From the sequence record OR192075.1: DNA of 64,000 bases; one strand, 5' to 3'. Of this stretch, positions 1-63,318 are shown piece after piece. Below the pieces are notes generated by a model. It was not told the DNA's origin. It searched no databases and saw only the letters and a list, made by a program, of their open reading frames with translations. This DNA is from Escherichia phage MIZ6. The first letter of the stretch is position 1, and each line of letters begins with the position of its first letter. A program made the translations under genes and the position numbers.

Positions 1-1163
1 TTGTTAATGCCCGTGATGGCGTTATTATGGCGTATATTGACACCACAACGGGCGAATTTAAGTCTAAAGGGACTATCGAAGGGACAACCATTAAAGACAC
101 AGGTCAACGCGTCTATAGCCCTGTTAATAAACCAACGAATAATGATTTAGATTTGGTGTCTCGTCGCGGTGATACCCTCACAGGAACATATAATTTAAAC
201 ACCGTCACTGTTAAACTATCGGTTGATTCGAAATTAATTGCAAGGGAACGTGATTTAATTAATTTTGATGCGACTAAGATCTATTATGGTAACGTTCTTG
301 ATACGTTGGTCTTCCGAAGTAAAGATGAGCCTACCATTTTTGTTAATGGCAAAGAAGGTCGTTTTTATCACACCAACAATAAACCAACTAAAGCCGATGT
401 TGGACTAGGCAATGTCACCAATGATGCACAGGTTAAACGTGCTGGTGATATTATGGAAGGTAACTTGCAAGCGCCTAGAATGTTGGCGACAAACGATCCT
501 GCTGGTCCGAATGAATTGGTTCGTTTGAGCTACTTTGAGAGAAAATCAATGGTAGCAAATCCAACCATCATAGGAAACGTTGATTGGAACACTCTTATTA
601 ATCGCGGTATCTATCGTGTGGAAAATGCTGGGTCGGGTACTAATAAACCGTCTGATAGCTATTATAACGGCGTTTTGATGGTATATCGCCCAGAAGATGC
701 GGTCGGTACTCGTCGAATTGTTCAGGTGTATTATCCTGAATCTATTGACCATCCGATGTGCTGGCGTTCTTGTTCTAATGAATCATGGACTGCATGGAAC
801 TATGTAGATCACCGTAAATTAGCCGATATTCGCTATGTTAACGTAACTGGCGATACCATGACAGGACCGTTAACTGTTCCGGCTGCAAACGGTGTTAGAA
901 CGGCTAAAACTAACTATAACGGGGATAACTGTTATGCGGCGTTAAGCGGTGCTGATGGTACTGCTATGATTCACCGCATTAGTGATATTAAAGGGACCGA
1001 AAAGCTGGGGATCACCCACGACTCAAAGGTCGTGTTTTTCCGTTCTAGAAACAATACTCAAACCGTGGACCGCTATCAGCTTTATCATGAAGGTAATAAA
1101 CCTACTCCGGCTGATGTTGGAGCGGTTCCACTTAATGCGGTGATTGATTTTGGTACTTTCTAA
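1..1163 (+). CDS. Tail fiber protein, C-terminal portion (5' end lies upstream of window); possibly gp36-like long tail fiber subunit
   Basis: Track ORF 27..1163 stays open in frame back to base 3 and has no SD before ATG-27; tail-fiber motifs GDTMTG and HEGNKPTxADVG shared with the next gene. Confidence 0.55.
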   Translation, partial: VNARDGVIMAYIDTTTGEFKSKGTIEGTTIKDTGQRVYSPVNKPTNNDLDLVSRRGDTLTGTYNLNTVTVKLSVDSKLIARERDLINFDATKIYYGNVLDTLVFRSKDEPTIFVNGKEGRFYHTNNKPTKADVGLGNVTNDAQVKRAGDIMEGNLQAPRMLATNDPAGPNELVRLSYFERKSMVANPTIIGNVDWNTLINRGIYRVENAGSGTNKPSDSYYNGVLMVYRPEDAVGTRRIVQVYYPESIDHPMCWRSCSNESWTAWNYVDHRKLADIRYVNVTGDTMTGPLTVPAANGVRTAKTNYNGDNCYAALSGADGTAMIHRISDIKGTEKLGITHDSKVVFFRSRNNTQTVDRYQLYHEGNKPTPADVGAVPLNAVIDFGTF

Positions 1164-1167
1164 TTTT

Positions 1168-1193
1168 AGCGGGGATTATCTCCCCGCTTTTCT
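1168..1193 (+). terminator. Intrinsic terminator after first fiber gene
   Basis: GC hairpin agcggggattatctccccgct followed by tttct. Confidence 0.5.
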
Positions 1194-1199
1194 AAATAA
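1192..1199 (+). promoter_or_regulatory. Candidate late promoter element (CTAAATAA, variant of T4 late TATAAATA)
   Basis: Same octamer sits ~35 nt upstream of both the gp37 ATG and the holin ATG. Confidence 0.25.
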
Positions 1200-1233
1200 T
1201 ATTATTCTAATAACCGTTTAAGGATTTTATAAA

Positions 1234-3990
1234 ATGGCAGATTTAAGCAGAATCCAATTTAAACGCACTAGCACTAAAGGTCGTAAACCTGATGCTAGTG
1301 CGATGAATCCGGGGGAATTGGCAATCAACCTTGCGGATCAATATCTTCTTACTAAAAATGATTCCGGTGCTATTATCAATTTAAGTTGTCCTCCGGTGTA
1401 TGACCGACAAGTTAGATTCGCTGGTAAGGTTGACGGTGACAACTATATTTTAGGTAAAACTGCTAACTATATGGATGATTCAACCGCTCGCGACCTTAAC
1501 AAATTTGGTGCGTTTCGAACGAATAATGCTGATGGATGGTCTAACTTGATTCTGAACATTCCTCATTCTAGCGGTAAAGCACACGGTCGCGGGTTTGAAT
1601 TTCAATATGGTTCTAGTTCCTCTCAGGTTAAAACCTATGGCTTTGATCAGGATGGTAACAAGAGATTCAGTTACCGCATGTATCATGAAGGCGATAAACC
1701 TACACCATCGGAATTGAACGTTTACAGCAAACAAGAAGTAGATAGAATGTTTGTTAAAAACGTTAAAATGTCTACTCCTCCCGATGTAAGTCGAGGATAT
1801 TTCAAAATTGCTACCGCCATGATCCCCCAGCAAGGAAAAATGGCATTTATTCGTATCTATGGTGGTAATGGATATAACGTTAACTCTATGGATCAAGTTG
1901 ACTTTGTAGAAATCGTGATTCGTGGTGGGAATGGAAATCCTAAAGGTGTTAGTATTGCAGCATATCGACGAAATGCTTTAAATCAGCTTGAAGTATTTGC
2001 TATTAATACATCTGGTGATAACTATGATATCTATGTAAAATATGGTCGATACACCGATAACGTTATTGTAGAATTTGGAAAAACGGTCGATGTTAATTTA
2101 ACTGTTCATGATGTTCCGGCTTTTTCGGAAGCAAAACCTGCTGGTACTACCTTTGAAGGTCGTGTTATTACGATGTTCAACACCGAAAACAAAGCCGGAA
2201 CGTTGATGTTTGATAATAACTCACAAGCAACCTATGATATTGTGAGCCTTAGCAATGCACCTGATAATAGCCGAAATTATCTGCGTAAATTCCGTAGCAA
2301 AGCGAATGAAACAATATGGCATGAAACTGTTCAAGGTGATGTGTATCGTCTGGCTACTGGTTCCACCGACCAAAAAGAAGTATTAAAAATTGTTGGTAGT
2401 GATGGTTTATTTGTCAATAGACTTCATCTGCAAGGCAATAACGCGATTCGTATGTGGCGTCCTACTGGTTGTAGTAACTATTTTGAATATATGGATCAGC
2501 GAGACGGGGCTAATAAACGTCAAGGCTGGTTTGGTTTTGGTTCTACAGAAACCAACGATTTTCAATGGTATAGTGACGAAGGTAAAAACTTTGTTAAGCT
2601 AGAAGCAAGTGGTCAAGTATCTTTAAGCGCAGGTGCAACCAAAATTGTATACACTAATGGTCAATATGTAGCTGCCAATTCTGATGCATACCGTATGATC
2701 TTTGGTAATTATGGTGCATTCTGGCGTAATGACGGCACTAAAGTTTATCTTCTTTCTACTGCCGAAAATGATCGTTTTGGTGGATGGAATAGCTATCGTC
2801 CATTCATTTATGATTTAACTTCCGGTAACGTTCAATTAGGCGGTGATGGTAACGAAGATGCATTAACGTTAGAATGTGCTTCTCGTGCCGCTCGCTTTAG
2901 TAATGACGTTTACATTAAGAAAGGGCTTTTGACTTTCGACGCTGGGCGATTAAATTCCCGCGATTACTTCCGGTTTAACCATTGGGGCGATAGCAATAAC
3001 GGTCGCGATAACATCCTACAGATTGAAGACAGTCAGGGCGCACATTTTATCACTGAACGTGCTATGGGTACTGGTAACATAACAACACGTTTTAGAGGCT
3101 TTGTACGTGTAGAATCTGGTGAAATTGCATTTGATGCTAACCGTGGTTCTTCTTCGCAATTTAGTCTCCATACATGGGGTAATGAATCACGAAAACAAGT
3201 TTTTGAATGTAAGGATGCAACAAGTTATCATTGGTATACCGAACGTACTGCGGGTGGCACTGGTCCGGTTAAGTTCTCTGTTGCAGGTTCTTTCTATAGC
3301 GGAAGCGATGTTAACGTAGGCGGTAGTCTGAATTTTGGTAATGCTATTCAACGCGGCGCTAGCGTCATTACTATAGATTCTGGTTCTGCGGGTGCTGGTT
3401 CTTTTGCATCTCAACATGATGATAACGTCAAAGCACCTATTTTCCAACGTTTAGACCGTGGTGATGCGTCTATATATGTTCCTTTGATTAAGCAACGTTA
3501 TGTTCAAGGTGCAGTAACATTCTCGTTGGGTATGCTTCTTAACGAAGGTTCATGGCGAGTTCATGTTAAAGGTTCTGGTGTTGAATCTAATACTACCTTC
3601 TATAAAAACGGCGATTTCCAAGCTGGACGCAATGGTAACTTTAACGACGTTTACATTCGCTCTGACTCTCGCCTGAAAATCAACAAGGAAGAGTATAAAG
3701 AGAATGCTACCGATAAAGTAAATAATCTTAAGGTATATTCCTACGATAAGGTTAAATCTTTAACCGACCGTACTGTAATCGCTCATGAAGTTGGTATTAT
3801 TGCTCAGGATCTTGAAAAAGAATTGCCGGAAGCAGTAACAACTTCTAACATCGGCGACCCAGATAACCCAGAAGAGATCTTAACAATTTCTAACTCTGCT
3901 GTCAACGCTCTTTTAATTAAGGCGTTTCAGGAAATGAGCGAAGAATTGAAAGCCGTTAAAGCTGAACTAGCGGAACTTAAAAAGAATTAA
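1234..3990 (+). CDS. 37: Long tail fiber distal subunit gp37-like, with C-terminal intramolecular chaperone (peptidase S74-like) domain
   Basis: N-terminus MADLSRIQFKRTSTKGRKPDASAMNPGELAINL matches T4 gp37 N-terminus; conserved AGAGSFASQ..YVPLIKQRYVQG block; C-terminal ~130 aa resemble the autoproteolytic chaperone domain of T5 pb1 / endosialidase. Confidence 0.8.
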   Translation: MADLSRIQFKRTSTKGRKPDASAMNPGELAINLADQYLLTKNDSGAIINLSCPPVYDRQVRFAGKVDGDNYILGKTANYMDDSTARDLNKFGAFRTNNADGWSNLILNIPHSSGKAHGRGFEFQYGSSSSQVKTYGFDQDGNKRFSYRMYHEGDKPTPSELNVYSKQEVDRMFVKNVKMSTPPDVSRGYFKIATAMIPQQGKMAFIRIYGGNGYNVNSMDQVDFVEIVIRGGNGNPKGVSIAAYRRNALNQLEVFAINTSGDNYDIYVKYGRYTDNVIVEFGKTVDVNLTVHDVPAFSEAKPAGTTFEGRVITMFNTENKAGTLMFDNNSQATYDIVSLSNAPDNSRNYLRKFRSKANETIWHETVQGDVYRLATGSTDQKEVLKIVGSDGLFVNRLHLQGNNAIRMWRPTGCSNYFEYMDQRDGANKRQGWFGFGSTETNDFQWYSDEGKNFVKLEASGQVSLSAGATKIVYTNGQYVAANSDAYRMIFGNYGAFWRNDGTKVYLLSTAENDRFGGWNSYRPFIYDLTSGNVQLGGDGNEDALTLECASRAARFSNDVYIKKGLLTFDAGRLNSRDYFRFNHWGDSNNGRDNILQIEDSQGAHFITERAMGTGNITTRFRGFVRVESGEIAFDANRGSSSQFSLHTWGNESRKQVFECKDATSYHWYTERTAGGTGPVKFSVAGSFYSGSDVNVGGSLNFGNAIQRGASVITIDSGSAGAGSFASQHDDNVKAPIFQRLDRGDASIYVPLIKQRYVQGAVTFSLGMLLNEGSWRVHVKGSGVESNTTFYKNGDFQAGRNGNFNDVYIRSDSRLKINKEEYKENATDKVNNLKVYSYDKVKSLTDRTVIAHEVGIIAQDLEKELPEAVTTSNIGDPDNPEEILTISNSAVNALLIKAFQEMSEELKAVKAELAELKKN

Positions 3991-4030: not shown

Positions 4031-4270
4031 ATGGTCTATAATATCGTCATTGGCGCTTTGTCTAATTTCGGAATGAAATTATTGTCAAAGTTAATTAGTG
4101 AAAAGATGCTCACTAAAATTTTCTTCTATTGCGCTCGTCGTCTTGCGGCTTATACCAATACGCCAATTGATGATCGTTTTGTGGAAGAACTTTATAAGGA
4201 GTTTAATAAAGATCAGTCAGAAGATAGTAACGAGCAAGATAAATCTAGTGATAGTCAACTACCTAAATAA
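4031..4270 (+). CDS. Hypothetical small protein (79 aa), hydrophobic N-terminus, acidic C-terminus
   Basis: Strong SD AAGGAG 8 nt before ATG; sits between gp37 and holin. Confidence 0.4.
   Translation: MVYNIVIGALSNFGMKLLSKLISEKMLTKIFFYCARRLAAYTNTPIDDRFVEELYKEFNKDQSEDSNEQDKSSDSQLPK
4263..4270 (+). promoter_or_regulatory. Candidate late promoter element (CTAAATAA) upstream of holin
   Basis: Octamer 34 nt upstream of holin ATG, same spacing as upstream of gp37. Confidence 0.25.
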
Positions 4271-4303: not shown

Positions 4304-4960
4304 ATGCAAGTTTCTGAAAAAGGGAAAGACTTTGCTATCTCAAATGTCCTGCGCGCTATTTTCACAACTAAAAGCACGGAGTTGCTCGTACTTCGTGTTT
4401 TTGCTGCCGTCGTGTTGTCCATATTGGCATTTGTCGTTTATAGTAAAAACGAGTTATTTGCGCTTTATAAAGAGACTCGTTATGAGACTTATGCTCACAT
4501 TCTCCAGGTAGAGAAAGACCGCAATTTTGATAATGCAGCACAGGAGCAGTTACAGATAGTTCATGTGTCGGCTGATGCCGATTTTTCTGCTGTTTTTAGT
4601 TTTCGTCCGAAAAACCTAAACTATTTTGTTGATTTGGTGGCATATGAAGGAAAGCTACCACACACAATCGATGAAAAAAATTTAGGCGGATTCCCTATCA
4701 ATAAAACGAGTGAAGAATATCGTAGGCATCTTTTAGGTAAATCATATTTTACCGATAAAGATTTCCAGTATATTCCATCAAGAGAAAAGAAATTAGAGAA
4801 TATCGATATAGGTTTCATGTATTCTTGTCCTATATTCAATCTCGATAATGTCTATTCTGGTAGTATCGCCATTTCATGGAAGAATAAACCGGATATTGAC
4901 ATTGAGAATTTAGATACTCTTTGCAATCAATCTGCCAGAATCCTCGGAAGGATTAGATAA
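4304..4960 (+). CDS. t: Holin T
   Basis: 218 aa; strong similarity to T4 holin t (YETY, QLQIVH, FSAVFSFRPKNLNYFVD, ARILGR motifs); ATG start. Confidence 0.9.
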   Translation: MQVSEKGKDFAISNVLRAIFTTKSTELLVLRVFAAVVLSILAFVVYSKNELFALYKETRYETYAHILQVEKDRNFDNAAQEQLQIVHVSADADFSAVFSFRPKNLNYFVDLVAYEGKLPHTIDEKNLGGFPINKTSEEYRRHLLGKSYFTDKDFQYIPSREKKLENIDIGFMYSCPIFNLDNVYSGSIAISWKNKPDIDIENLDTLCNQSARILGRIR

Positions 4961-40023: not shown

Positions 40024-40052
40024 AGTATAACGGGGATTTCTCCCCGCGTCAA
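40024..40052 (-). promoter_or_regulatory. sigma70-like promoter (TTGACG-17-TATACT) with CGGGGA..TCCCCG palindrome in spacer
   Basis: Directly after gene 47 stop; drives the 47-46 intervening ORFs. Confidence 0.35.
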
Positions 40053-41078
40053 CTAACTTTTTGCGCTATTTACTTCGGCTAAAAGTTCATCAGAAATACG
40101 CTTGACCGCCGCAAGTTCTTCCGGTTCTAGGTTTTGTTCTTCCAGATATTCATAGACCATCTGAATAGTGCTTTTAACTTCAATAACACCTGTTTCCTGT
40201 GATGCGCTACTCTCCAGCTTATGGACCACTTTTAGCTTGTGTACAACGGCCTCTAACGCGCTTTCTAACTTACTTAACCCATTATCAGCAACCGTTGCGA
40301 TAAGACGCACACTAAGCCCCTTAAAGCGTTCTACATCGATTTTATCATCTGACGGGTAAGTGATACGCACATGATAAGTTTTATCATTCTGGATAAACTC
40401 TTTTTTGTGTGTATCGGTATCGAATACCCAAAAACCACGCGGATCGTTTTCGTCACCAGCCGTTAGTGTGTATGGTGTACCAATATACGTTACGTTACCG
40501 CCATCACTGATAGTATGAAAGTGACCAGAAAACACTTCACGGTATTTCTTGAGGAAGTCCGCGCTATAACCTTCTGATTTTAGCCCTTTATAGAAATAGT
40601 AACCGGACAATTCCCAATGGCCTACACAATATTCGCTGAATGAGTTTTGAATAAACTCTAAAATCTCTGATTTATTGTCATCACAAAACCACGGGAACAG
40701 ATCAAATGATACACCATCAAAGGTGACTGTTTCCGGCTTATCGATAACTTTAATACAATCATACTGGCTTAACACTTCACGCGGTGCGTTAGGCTGGATC
40801 TTGTTTCGTTTAAACATATCATGGTTCCCGACCGTGATATAACAAGTAATACCAGCCTCTTCCAGTAACGGGATGACCTTAGTGCGGTTAAATTTCATGG
40901 TTTCATGGGTAATTGCTTTTCGGCAATCAAACCAATCCCCTGTTTGAATCCATGTCTTAATATTATGCTCTTTGGAGTATTCAACCGCCTTCTTGATGGT
41001 ATCAAGAATATACTCATGCACCCACGGATCATCGCCACCGATACCAGTATGCAGATCACCTAAAAGCAAAATTTTCAT
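40053..41078 (-). CDS. 47: Recombination endonuclease subunit (Mre11/SbcD-like nuclease)
   Basis: 341 aa; calcineurin-like phosphoesterase motifs (LLLGDLH, GNHD, GHFH); matches T4 gp47 size. Confidence 0.85.
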   Translation of the reverse strand: MKILLLGDLHTGIGGDDPWVHEYILDTIKKAVEYSKEHNIKTWIQTGDWFDCRKAITHETMKFNRTKVIPLLEEAGITCYITVGNHDMFKRNKIQPNAPREVLSQYDCIKVIDKPETVTFDGVSFDLFPWFCDDNKSEILEFIQNSFSEYCVGHWELSGYYFYKGLKSEGYSADFLKKYREVFSGHFHTISDGGNVTYIGTPYTLTAGDENDPRGFWVFDTDTHKKEFIQNDKTYHVRITYPSDDKIDVERFKGLSVRLIATVADNGLSKLESALEAVVHKLKVVHKLESSASQETGVIEVKSTIQMVYEYLEEQNLEPEELAAVKRISDELLAEVNSAKS

Positions 41079-57439: not shown

Positions 57440-57778
57440 TTACATTGATTGTAGAATCCTGTTTTTGATTTCATCAAGTTTTCTTCTCTGTACAATTCGT
57501 GCAATCTTCCTTTCATGATTTCGTTGGTTCTTGTCTTCACAGTTTACCCATTCAACAAGATCTTTACCCAACTCGAAAGCCCATTCTCGGTCTTGCTTTA
57601 CGTTTTGTAGGTATGGACTTTCTGACACTCTACGAAGTGATGTTGTCGTAACAAGAATGATCTCAGGAATGGTCGGATGTTCTTTTCCATATACAATAGG
57701 ACGCGAGTCACTATCAATACCTTGTAAGAAGGTGTATCCTGAATCACTTAGAATCATATACTTTTTCATTTCACACAT
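57440..57778 (-). CDS. Family-B small protein
   Basis: MILSDSGYTF...IILVTTTSLRRVSE; ATG with SD GAGGAA; ATGA overlap with upstream stop. Confidence 0.4.
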   Translation of the reverse strand: MCEMKKYMILSDSGYTFLQGIDSDSRPIVYGKEHPTIPEIILVTTTSLRRVSESPYLQNVKQDREWAFELGKDLVEWVNCEDKNQRNHERKIARIVQRRKLDEIKNRILQSM

Positions 57779-58035
57779 CACAGTTTCCTCAACCAGTTAT
57801 TAAAGCGAGCAAACCATGACGCTTTTCGTGCTTCTTTTACTTTATGTGCACGAAAACCACTGAAACACCATTCATAATCATCACCGAAACATGATTCAAC
57901 AGGAACACCCGCATTTCGTAGTTCTCTGGTCTTTATCATGAATCCTTGACATAAGGGGCGACCTTCAACAATGATAGGAAGTTTAACTTTTTCCATGAAA
58001 GTATACCCAGCACGGTCAATAATTTCAATTTTCAT
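57778..58035 (-). CDS. Family-B small protein
   Basis: MKIEIIDRAGYTF...GFMIKTRELRNAGVP; SD GGAGA. Confidence 0.45.
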   Translation of the reverse strand: MKIEIIDRAGYTFMEKVKLPIIVEGRPLCQGFMIKTRELRNAGVPVESCFGDDYEWCFSGFRAHKVKEARKASWFARFNNWLRKL

Positions 58036-59249: not shown

Positions 59250-59277
59250 ATTATAGCATTGTGATTATCTTTGTCAA
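59250..59277 (-). promoter_or_regulatory. sigma70-like promoter (TTGACA-16-TATAAT)
   Basis: Minus-strand reading of tgtcaa (59272-59277) and attata (59250-59255). Confidence 0.4.
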
Positions 59278-59321
59278 CACCCAAAAACAAAAAAGGCTAC
59301 CCCGAAGGATAGCCCATAAAA

Positions 59322-60107
59322 TTACACGCGAGCACCGTAGATCGTGCCTACTTTATCCCAGCGAGGGGCATTACCAGTAACAGCTTTACCCGCAGCACCA
59401 CCAGAGTGAACAGTTCCTCCAGTACCACCTTTAATATATGAAGATTTGCCAGCAGCTCCCAAATCTCCACCATCTCCTCCATAATGAACCCCAGAAACAG
59501 TGCCTTTACCTGGGGCAGAAATTGTACCAGCAGATGCTGCCGCTGCGCCGCCTCCTGCCGCACCCGCAGCACCAAATGGACGGCCTCCACCGCCGCCAAA
59601 TTTCATATCCATTTGAGGGAAAGGATTGTATCTAGCACCAGCACCGCCACCACCGCCACCACCAATAATACCATTATTGTTTATTCTTAAACGAGTTCCA
59701 ATTCCGTTATTTATTGCATTTCCTCCTGCTCCACCAGCAGAGTTACTTCCGCCATTTCCTCCACGACCTAATACATGAACACCAGAGTTAATAATGAGTG
59801 TTACATATTCGTTTGTCAGTGAGCTAGGGAAATCAAGACAAGGAACGCCAGTAGATTGGGAAACAATATTACCCGTGATAGTAATTACTACCGGAGTAGA
59901 TCCTTGTGCTTTCATCCAGTTAATAAGAGTGTCTTTATTGTAAGAGTTACTAGCACCAATGCTATAATGAATCTCTTTAGAGCGTCCGACCATTGCCGAC
60001 ATATACGCCGGACGACCTAAGCGAACAGCTTGCATTGCGGCGCTCATCCACCGTTGACCAGTCTCGGACACAGCAGATGATCCTACCCATCCAGAAGATA
60101 TTGCCAT
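59322..60107 (-). CDS. 38: gp38-type tail fiber adhesin homolog (glycine-rich)
   Basis: N-terminus SGWVGSSAVSETGQRWM and NEYV..I...GV...GRGGNGGSNS plus poly-Gly motifs and C-terminal VTGNAPRW..G.IYG.RV match T2/S16-type gp38 as I recall it; SD GAGGAA. Confidence 0.7.
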   Translation of the reverse strand: MAISSGWVGSSAVSETGQRWMSAAMQAVRLGRPAYMSAMVGRSKEIHYSIGASNSYNKDTLINWMKAQGSTPVVITITGNIVSQSTGVPCLDFPSSLTNEYVTLIINSGVHVLGRGGNGGSNSAGGAGGNAINNGIGTRLRINNNGIIGGGGGGGAGARYNPFPQMDMKFGGGGGRPFGAAGAAGGGAAAASAGTISAPGKGTVSGVHYGGDGGDLGAAGKSSYIKGGTGGTVHSGGAAGKAVTGNAPRWDKVGTIYGARV

Positions 60108-60119
60108 AAAATTTCCTCA

Positions 60120-60143
60120 CAAGAAAAGCCCCAATTAAGGGGC
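60120..60143 (-). terminator. Intrinsic terminator
   Basis: Hairpin gccccaattaaggggc followed by U-run on minus-strand RNA, between upstream gene and the gp38-like gene. Confidence 0.45.
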
Positions 60144-60161
60144 ATTGATTGATAATATTAC

Positions 60162-60383
60162 TTAGATGACCTCTGCTTCACCATTCAGGAAGAAAGACCA
60201 TGTTTTGTTAGGATAGCGAAGCGCCCATGATTCAGCGGTTTTAACACCAGATTCGAACAATTGACGGCTGGTTACTTTAGCCATACCATCTTCGATGGCA
60301 ACGTTTTCAATAATCATCGGGTACTTAGCGCCACGCATGAAACCGAAGCCAGCGGAAGATTTGATAATTTTAACCGTTGCCAT
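60162..60383 (-). CDS. Hypothetical protein (73 aa), family-C
   Basis: ATG with SD AGGAGA; N-terminal motif shared with 56852..57130. Confidence 0.4.
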   Translation of the reverse strand: MATVKIIKSSAGFGFMRGAKYPMIIENVAIEDGMAKVTSRQLFESGVKTAESWALRYPNKTWSFFLNGEAEVI

Positions 60384-60424: not shown

Positions 60425-60453
60425 ATTATGCAATAACACCGGAACGCTGTCAA
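60425..60453 (-). promoter_or_regulatory. sigma70-like promoter (TTGACA-17-CATAAT)
   Basis: Minus-strand reading of tgtcaa (60448-60453) and attatg (60425-60430). Confidence 0.4.
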
Positions 60454-61700: not shown

Positions 61701-61736
61701 AAAAACGAAAAAGCCACCCTTTCGGATGGCTTTTTG
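61701..61736. terminator. Bidirectional intrinsic terminator
   Basis: Hairpin agccaccctttcggatggct flanked by A5 and T5. Confidence 0.5.
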
Positions 61737-61965
61737 ATTATATTTTATTCACGTCCATTTGTATAGTAGTGTTTGAATCGACCTTTGCTAAACTAGTTAA
61801 ACATAGTAACCAATTCACCATCCCTTTCCAATGATAACACTTCCTCGTCTTAGACGGGTCTTCTGATTCGGCAGTAATTGAACACGCGAAAGTATGAGGA
61901 AGCCAAATAGTTGTGTTGATGCTAGTATTCTTTTACTTCTGGTATGTATCCCAATGTGACTAACA

Positions 61966-62364: not shown

Positions 62365-62653
62365 GTTCTCGATTCTCCATATTATGCAACATAACAAACT
62401 GTTGTGCGGCATATTCCCCCATAATAAAACACTGCTTAGAATCCATACATTTACTACGAGCATACATCTTCATAATATGGGCATGAAATTTCTGGCTGGT
62501 TTCAATGGAAGGAGATATTTTGTTTACATATACTATCATTGCACCGTCGAAATAATCAGTAAAGTCACCAGTTGGATCATATTGATCAGCACTGACACTT
62601 CCGACCGCAGTCAAGCATATTGCCGCTGTTAGAGTTTTACGAATAAATGACAT
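62351..62653 (-). CDS. Small secreted protein (100 aa)
   Basis: Signal peptide MSFIRKTLTAAICLTAVGSVSA; SD GGGGGA lies in the 3' arm of an upstream hairpin. Confidence 0.4.
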   Translation of the reverse strand: MSFIRKTLTAAICLTAVGSVSADQYDPTGDFTDYFDGAMIVYVNKISPSIETSQKFHAHIMKMYARSKCMDSKQCFIMGEYAAQQFVMLHNMENREHEIQ

Positions 62654-62721
62654 AAGTCATTCCCCCAGATTAAAAATATTCAGTTATATTTATAATCTGG
62701 GGCTTTATTTATGATTAACTC

Positions 62722-63318
62722 TTATTTGGTAGTACCGTCAATAAAATGTTTACGGCACACAGAGACATATTTATCCTCTGCACCAACTTCTATTTGAGCA
62801 CCATCGCGAATAACATTACCCTCTTTATCTACACGAAGGACCATTGTTGCTTTCTTGCCACAATGACAAATACCCTTCATTTCGACCAGTTTATCAGCAA
62901 ATGCCATTAATGCCGCAGATCCTTCAAATAGATTGCCCTGAAAGTCGGTGCGAAGGCCATAGCACAGTACAGGGATATTTGCATCATCGACAAGCGCACA
63001 CAAGCCTAAAACATGCTCTTTAGTCATAAATTGGGCTTCATCTACAAATACAGCATCAGGACGCCATCGATCCGGTCTACGCTTACCTAACGATTCACGA
63101 TAAACCAAATCGAAAAGATCATCCGATTCAGTGAAGGTGATCGCTGGAGCACTTAGGCCAATTCGGGAAACAACTTCACTTTCTGAATCTCGATTATCAA
63201 TCGCTGGCTTAAGAATTAATACTCGCATATCACGTTCGGTATAGTTATAAGCACTTTGTAACAGAGAAGTTGATTTGCCAGCGTTCATAGATGCATAGTA
63301 GAAATATAGTTGCGCCAT
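62722..63318 (-). CDS. tk: Thymidine kinase
   Basis: Strong similarity to bacterial/T4 Tdk (MAQLYFYYASMNAGKST, VLCYGLRTDF, YVSVCRKH). Confidence 0.9.
   Translation of the reverse strand: MAQLYFYYASMNAGKSTSLLQSAYNYTERDMRVLILKPAIDNRDSESEVVSRIGLSAPAITFTESDDLFDLVYRESLGKRRPDRWRPDAVFVDEAQFMTKEHVLGLCALVDDANIPVLCYGLRTDFQGNLFEGSAALMAFADKLVEMKGICHCGKKATMVLRVDKEGNVIRDGAQIEVGAEDKYVSVCRKHFIDGTTK

Follow-up and report, generated by a model that had tools for sequence, protein, structure and literature searches.

The displaced gene 38 tail-fibre adhesin of a Krischvirus genome: a genus-typical early-region site, its cassette borders and a recombinant allele

How does the gene for a long-tail-fibre tip adhesin come to lie among early genes, tens of kilobases from the fibre genes and on the opposite strand, and does it serve the virion from there? 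The question is raised by an open reading frame at 59322..60107 (-) of Escherichia phage MIZ6 (OR192075.1), analysed here as a window of 64,000 nucleotides. In most T-even-like phages host range is determined mainly by gp38, which is also an engineering target for therapeutic phages, and the distance of its gene from the fibre operon in RB49-like phages matters for annotation as well as for receptor-prediction pipelines that search only beside gene 37 (g37). An initial annotation, made from the letters of this DNA, had described the frame as an orphan gp38-type adhesin gene and had offered two readings, a relocated receptor-binding protein or an adhesin reused early, for example in receptor masking or superinfection exclusion. 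We conclude, at a probability of roughly 0.93, that the frame is Krischvirus gene 38 (g38), encoding the monomeric adhesin at the tip of each long tail fibre, and that it stands at a displaced site as a hairpin-g38-hairpin cassette.

The reading frame is intact, starts with ATG, is preceded by a Shine-Dalgarno GAGG 8 nt before the start codon, and encodes 261 amino acids with full-length similarity to gp38 adhesins. The product covers the whole of Pfam GP38 (PF05268; 1.1e-70, 238.3 bits against a cut-off of 25, profile 1-218/218) and matches PHROG 2056, 'tail fiber protein; host specificity' (7.8e-100), while the conserved N-terminal gp37-attachment region named in the initial annotation corresponds to Gp38_N (PF21721; 3.9e-18, 65.6 bits, 1-40/40). 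Its best match among solved structures is the receptor recognition protein of phage S16 (PDB 6F45_D), aligned over residues 1-259/261 at 8.6e-49, and this alignment, which had been proposed as a check, agrees with the original assignment to the T2/S16-type gp38 adhesins. The glycine-rich motifs on which that assignment had also drawn all align in the 6F45_D match, and GRGGNGG, GGGGGG, GGGGGRPFGA, GG.GG and GGAAGKAV are invariant among nine alleles, with variable segments between them. At the protein level gp38 is 97% identical to that of Brandy49 and 81-85% identical to those of RB49, Phi1, JSE and GEC-3S. The full-length alignment to 6F45_D further suggests a polyglycine-II sandwich fold; a single-sequence AlphaFold2 model of gp38 returned a mean pLDDT of 34 and a pTM of 0.25.

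The product names in public records point elsewhere, as AY343333, EU863408 and HE978309 (the RB49, JSE and GEC-3S records) call the protein 'distal long tail fiber assembly catalyst', which would make it a tail-fibre assembly chaperone of T4 type and not a structural adhesin. We regard this as highly improbable: the name was carried over from the unrelated T4 gp38 (Trojet 2011, PMC3157838), Pfam at E<=1 returns GP38 and Gp38_N only and no tail-assembly-chaperone family, and the protein aligns along its full length with the S16 adhesin, which stays fibre-bound in 6F45. Several records name g38 either 'hypothetical protein' or, wrongly, a T4-style 'assembly catalyst'.

The binding partner of the adhesin is the distal half-fibre protein encoded by g37 at 1234..3990 (+), and the chaperone domain that the initial annotation had placed at the C terminus of this gp37-like product is a self-cleaving Peptidase_S74 at aa 810-869 that stands in place of a T4-type needle tip, with a cleavage-site region, VYIRSD.RLK, that aligns with gp37 of the Tequatrovirus Kha5h. 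In the working that we propose, the S74 chaperone would cleave itself off, the N-terminal domain of gp38 would then dock on the tip of the gp37 trimer, and the glycine-rich C-terminal sandwich of gp38 would, by analogy, present hypervariable loops for outer-membrane receptor binding and so determine host range. The gp37 tip gave no match to the S16 gp37 fragment of 6F45 even at E<=10, and only gp34-type trimerisation repeats were matched; the gp37-gp38 docking interface is thus assumed from the conserved gp38 N-domain only.

In T2-like phages g38 directly follows g37, as the initial annotation had stated, and this classical order, g37-g38-t-asiA, is found in Tequatrovirus Kha5h and in Salmonella phage F13076. 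The slot that g38 fills in other T-even phages is taken in the window by a 79-aa ORF (ORF79) at 4031..4270 (+), a member of phrog_402 (unknown function) with no similarity to gp38, followed by holin t at 4304..4960 (+) (Pfam Phage_holin_T, 4.5e-61). A candidate role for ORF79 as a remnant of g38 was rejected on that lack of similarity and on its membership of phrog_402; RB49 likewise has a 79-aa ORF in the g38 slot (Trojet 2011, PMC3157838). From the end of g37 to the start of g38 the distance is 56.1 kb, on opposite strands, close to the ~55 kb, minus strand, first estimated.

The site of g38 is shared across the genus. The 1.9-kb g38 region is 100% identical to MIZ2 and MIZ3 and 88-99% identical to many Krischvirus genomes, FL37 and FL38 being 98.1-98.6% identical to the window across the g38 locus. 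The gene occupies the identical site in all five genomes inspected, RB49, Phi1 (where it is annotated '38'), JSE, GEC-3S and Brandy49, a normal gene order for the genus and a finding that the initial annotation had named as contrary to its idea of an anomaly. On the early strand the order in five Krischviruses is tk, rI, rI.-1, four small ORFs, a 73-aa ORF, g38 and a 96-aa ORF. A junction-specific search found the boundary between the 73-aa ORF and g38 spanned in 43 records, and a second junction search found the g37/ORF79/t boundary without g38 spanned in 43 records. The displacement that prompted the label of orphan is therefore real, but it is genus-typical and not unusual.

It is also the usual, published arrangement in RB49-like phages, and the observation as such was already known: the displaced g38 of these phages is reported by Trojet 2011 (PMC3157838), citing Desplats 2002, appears again in Lutz 2025 (PMC12032242), and is placed "~55 kb downstream of gp37" in a 2026 preprint (bioRxiv 10.64898/2026.04.02.716166). 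The same preprint, which includes Brandy49 among the phages studied, assigns RB49 gp38 to OmpA and reports that gp38 swaps redirect receptor use; FL37 and FL38 are absent from the phages given a receptor in PMC12032242. In spontaneous host-range mutants of RB49 the sole changes are in gp38, either E230K or E230K+Y231S (Golomidova 2022, PMC9569957). With host-range mutations mapping to the RB49 orthologue and a displaced site typical of the genus, the first of the two initial readings, that of a relocated receptor-binding protein, stands.

The allele itself is of mixed origin. Sliding-window nucleotide identity over nt 1-300 of the gene is 98-100% to RB49, Phi1, JSE and GEC-3S and 57-82% to Kha5h, and over nt 330-750 the relation is reversed, at 90-98% to Kha5h and 42-77% to RB49, Phi1 and JSE. 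The latter segment (gene nt ~330-750, window 59358..59778 (-)) is the receptor-binding part, made up of the glycine-rich motifs and the hypervariable segments, and its receptor-binding type is common to Brandy49, FL37/38, kaaroe and W115. As judged from these identity profiles, the window's g38 is a recombinant allele in which a Krischvirus-type 5' third is joined to a Tequatrovirus-like receptor-binding two-thirds. Such a mosaic implies that the glycine-rich motifs are points at which the displaced gene still swaps its receptor-binding part with genes at the canonical locus in another genus; exchange of g38 at these motifs is the mechanism described by Tetart 1998 and Trojet 2011.

The same comparison bears on whether g38 could be a decaying or silent relic left by a rearrangement, as its unusual location and the presence of a hairpin between it and its promoter might suggest. 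We give this next to no probability, since the frame is uninterrupted and has a good Shine-Dalgarno sequence, the genome has no other g38, the N-terminal third is 98-100% conserved in the genus, and the receptor-binding part was recently exchanged in frame with a Tequatrovirus allele. Conservation of the N-terminal third together with an in-frame swap of the receptor-binding part is the signature of selection for host range, and the RB49 genetics (PMC9569957) contradict a relic directly. The copy number was read from MIZ3, an identical genome record, in which g38 occurs in one place.

Can a virion gene be expressed from this position? The transcription unit begins at a sigma70-type early promoter at 60425..60453 (-) (TTGACA-17-CATAAT, 11/12 matches), which lies 320 nt upstream of g38, is kept in five Krischviruses and is an annotated promoter in GEC-3S. 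Its first gene is the 73-aa ORF at 60162..60383 (-) (phrog_7345, unknown function), and between this ORF and the g38 Shine-Dalgarno sequence stands a GC hairpin at 60128..60143 (-), GCCCC-TTAATT-GGGGC followed by TTTTCTT, with a folding energy of -11.2 kcal/mol. The sigma70-like promoter, the small gene and the terminator-like hairpin with its T-run had all been located correctly in the initial annotation. One loop base of this hairpin varies among five Krischviruses and the remainder is invariant, and it is probably a weak terminator or attenuator. Directly 3' of g38 lies a strong terminator hairpin at 59294..59315 (-), with 9 bp, a UUCG loop and a T-run (-14.7 kcal/mol, z -4.1), which is an annotated terminator in GEC-3S; together with the perfect sigma70 promoter of the next gene at 59250..59277 (-) (TTGACA-16-TATAAT with TG) it forms an element of the promoter-early stem-loop (PeSL) type. 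The 390 nt 5' of g38, which take in promoter, 73-aa ORF, hairpin and Shine-Dalgarno sequence, are 97% identical in five Krischviruses and more conserved than g38 itself.

In T4 gene e the ribosome-binding site is hidden by RNA structure. A comparable concealment of the g38 ribosome-binding site was considered and rejected, as the fold of 60060..60175 (-) has a z of -0.47 against shuffles and leaves the Shine-Dalgarno sequence open. Neither tRNA genes nor Rfam matches were found.

The late promoters were searched at several levels of stringency. An exact match to the T4 late box, TATAAATA, is present a single time in the 64-kb window against 5.7 expected. It lies at 62687..62694 (-), upstream of rI, and precedes g38 on that strand by 2.58 kb; as the nearest canonical box, it leaves standing the initial observation that no late-promoter motif lies near the gene. 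This rI late promoter is kept in the same position in GEC-3S, Phi1, JSE and RB49 (4/4 checked) and corresponds to RB49 Pl:48756, which Nolan 2006 (PMC1524935) predicted as the sole late promoter in this region, with none predicted for RB49 g38. The relaxed RB49 late-promoter form WATAAATA, from the same study, adds one site only, inside g38. One-mismatch variants of the late box number 82, below the 129 expected by chance, and none lies between the 73-aa ORF and g38. Finally, the rI late promoter is separated from g38 by a strong terminator, a stem-loop of -17.8 kcal/mol at 61735..61708.

Two candidate routes of expression follow from this layout. g38 could be transcribed from the sigma70-type promoter 320 nt upstream by partial read-through of the weak hairpin, or late transcripts begun at the rI promoter could read through into it, and both routes may operate. 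One gp38 caps each of the six fibres, so that six gp38 are needed per virion, and modest expression would therefore suffice. A literature search found no published Krischvirus transcriptome, and with no canonical late promoter adjacent to this virion-protein gene the timing of g38 is a matter of reasoning from the arrangement. That no late promoter adjoins the gene is a legitimate puzzle, but one of regulatory detail, and it offers no evidence for a new function.

A new function was the second of the initial readings, in which displaced gp38 would be made early and have an extra or different, non-virion role in receptor masking or superinfection exclusion. The near-consensus sigma70 promoter with its 97% conserved control region, the absence of a late promoter near g38 and the company of early-strand ORFs would all fit such a role. 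Even so, we consider it very unlikely and do not retain it. gp38 has no signal peptide and no membrane or hydrophobic segment (N-terminus MAISSGWVGSSAVSETGQRW..., read from the sequence), and from the cytoplasm it could have no access to receptors in the outer membrane; the sole g38 in the genome, to which the RB49 host-range mutations map, must serve the virion; and no match to defence or exclusion models was obtained with PADLOC. Viable Krischviruses moreover exist, sister phages of the present one among them, in which the early site is empty and g38 stands under the g37 late operon, so that a function tied to the early locus is not indispensable.

Comparison with these empty sites shows what the filled ones contain in addition. 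Alignment of filled and empty sites delimits a g38 cassette of ~885 nt at 59278..60161 (-), consisting of hairpin, Shine-Dalgarno sequence, g38 and terminator hairpin, and bordered on one side by the stop of the 73-aa ORF and on the other by the TTGACA -35 box of the next promoter. The site is filled in MIZ2 and RB49 and empty in KMB43 and MIZ4. In KMB43 a gap of 61 nt separates the 73-aa ORF from the 96-aa ORF and g38 lies between g37 and ORF79, and MIZ4 and MIZ5, both sister isolates of the window's phage, share this configuration of an empty site with g38 in the canonical slot. Of ~57 Krischvirus records in all, approximately 14 match the g38 junction in the 73-aa ORF alone and the fibre locus in ORF79 and t alone; this group, to which FL04, FL15 and FL20 also belong, has a Tequatrovirus-like g37-g38 module in the canonical slot. 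The 73-aa ORF is retained where the g38 site is empty and is thus not part of the cassette. A role for it as a g38-specific partner was likewise rejected, given its presence in empty-site genomes and a paralogue at 57778..58035.

The borders of the cassette resemble PeSL elements, as defined in PMC2839356 and PMC4122927. At the downstream border the PeSL arrangement is complete, with the hairpin 59315..59294 followed by TTGACA-16-TATAAT at 59277..59250; at the upstream border promoter (60453) and hairpin (60143) are set apart by the 73-aa ORF. The promoter of the empty site carries a spacer hairpin, CGGGGAGAAATCCCCG, and the same hairpin is found in a window promoter at 40031..40046. Perfect TTGACA-N15-19-TATAAT promoters number nine in the window, where 0.14 would be expected, and every one is on the minus strand. 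The g38 cassette sits downstream of tk-rI in the PeSL-rich hyperplastic region described by Arbiol 2010 (PMC2839356), and most likely the gene reached its position through recombination at such regulatory repeats, to which it would still be subject.

At the fibre locus, comparison of MIZ2 with KMB43 suggests how the canonical slot came to be occupied in the empty-site phages. The two are 84% identical over g36 and the initial 128 nt of g37, the rest of g37 is essentially unrelated, and an identity of 98.3% resumes at window position 3978, 13 nt before the stop of MIZ2 g37. From the point of resumption it follows that KMB43 keeps the last codons of an RB49-type g37, now non-coding, downstream of its g38. 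The g37-g38 module of KMB43 itself shows 85-92% DNA identity to the modules of Pinarejo, RB5 and other Tequatroviruses. We infer a secondary origin for the canonical-slot Krischviruses, in which an ancestor of RB49 type imported a Tequatrovirus g37 body with g38 and lost the displaced copy, an order of events that we judge some three times as probable as the reverse.

Whether the cassette as a whole is mobile is a more tentative matter. Conceivably, g38 is a mobile PeSL-type cassette, an essential virion gene in an early-promoter/stem-loop unit that lacks its own late promoter and toggles between the hyperplastic-region site and a canonical slot re-filled by Tequatrovirus g37-g38 import; taken in full, we find this doubtful. 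PeSL recombination, with excised mini-circles, has been described for non-essential ORFs in a study that does not discuss g38 (Arbiol 2010, PMC2839356). If g38 did move in this manner, T4-like phages of different genera that infect the same cell could pass host-range determinants to one another as encapsidated mini-circles.

What the present analysis adds to the published arrangement is modest: the borders of the cassette, the direction of the g37-g38 module import, the Tequatrovirus-derived receptor-binding segment and the promoter question. Two small points of interest follow, namely the timing of a virion gene without its own late promoter, and whether the cassette structure helps g38 to move.

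Set against known systems, the g38 of the window shares with T4 gp38, a lambda Tfa-like chaperone that is absent from the virion, the gene number and the historical map position by g37, whereas sequence and function are unrelated. With the gp38 of S16 (6F45_D) and those of T2/T6/K3 type it shares full-length homology, and the window's gp37 bears an S74 chaperone; in S16, T2 and Tequatrovirus, however, g38 lies directly downstream of g37 in the late operon, and in the window it lies 56 kb off, on the other strand and in an early-type unit. Within the genus, the genes of RB49, Phi1, JSE, GEC-3S and Brandy49 occupy the same site behind a promoter-hairpin-Shine-Dalgarno region that is 97% identical, while relative to g38 of RB49, Phi1 and JSE the receptor-binding two-thirds is of another type, closest to Tequatrovirus alleles. 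The PeSL cassettes of RB49 and Phi1 hold non-essential ORFans (Arbiol 2010, PMC2839356); unlike them, the g38 cassette holds an essential virion gene, and its upstream hairpin has no promoter of its own. Like them, it lies in a hyperplastic region with stem-loops and near-perfect sigma70 promoters on either side, and it is polymorphic for presence and absence, the variable stretch running from an ORF stop to a -35 box.

Product names for g38, the displaced long-tail-fibre adhesin gene (59322..60107, minus strand), are inconsistent among the public records of relatives. The RB49, JSE and GEC-3S records call it 'distal long tail fiber assembly catalyst', which is the T4 name and denotes the wrong function, while JEP8 and PHB13 carry 'tail assembly protein', and Brandy, Whisky and KFS-EC have 'hypothetical protein'. 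At the fibre locus itself, MIZ2 was compared with KMB43, a Krischvirus that holds a probably imported g37-g38 module in the canonical slot. Identity is only 84% across g36 and the opening ~128 nt of g37 (window 1..1361 against the KMB43 fibre locus, L009), whereas the genes downstream of the fibre module are 98% identical. As a result, the left border of this module may be situated 5' of g37, or else g36 may have undergone an exchange of its own.

Around g38, two small ORFs of the hyperplastic region, the PeSL-rich early-strand stretch downstream of tk-rI, are paralogues because both belong to phrog_7345, a family of unknown function: a 73-aa ORF at 60162..60383 (minus strand; 1e-33) and an 85-aa ORF at 57778..58035 (minus strand; 1e-38). 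By eye, a similar motif seems common to several nearby small ORFs. The corresponding Brandy49 locus features an additional 715-aa gene (L010:446-2593, equivalent to MZ504876 47245..49392, minus strand) between rI.-1 and four small ORFs upstream of g38, at a position occupied in MIZ2 by a ~230-nt non-coding gap (window 61738..61965). Its product has Ig_3 as sole Pfam match, below threshold, and no match in PADLOC. As Brandy49 has the broadest host range among the RB49-like set (PMC9569957), we consider this protein a candidate second surface-binding protein that is worth checking.

Over the full 64 kb, the late-promoter octamer is strongly under-represented, with one copy of TATAAATA found against 5.7 expected and two of the relaxed RB49-style box WATAAATA against 13.5. 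Perfect sigma70 promoters are far more numerous than the 0.14 expected and keep to one strand: all nine lie on the minus strand. One promoter type carries a hairpin, CGGGGAGAAATCCCCG, in the spacer between its -35 and -10 elements, and is found in the window at 40025..40053 (minus strand; TTGACG-hairpin-TTATACT) and in KMB43 at its empty g38 site (L008:2975-3000; TTGACA-hairpin-TATAAT). The RB49-style late-box variant AATAAATA occurs once in the window, inside g38 (59708..59715, minus strand), where it falls within codons of the conserved A-I-N-N motif and is probably a coincidence. Any transcript from it would run into the terminator at 59315.

A hairpin, CCCCAGAT ... ATCTGGGG (region 62653..62720), encloses the late promoter box of rI, TATAAATA (62694..62687, minus strand). 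The 3' arm of the hairpin overlaps the rI Shine-Dalgarno sequence (GGGGGA) immediately 5' of the ATG at 62653 (minus strand); two late-box near-matches, CATAAATA (62713..62706) and GATAAATA (62775..62768), sit just 5' of the box on the same strand. In T4 genes e and soc, the ribosome-binding site is hidden in read-through early transcripts, and late transcripts begin within the hairpin and are translated. By analogy, the rI control region, with its hairpin and internal late box, looks like this gene e / soc arrangement.
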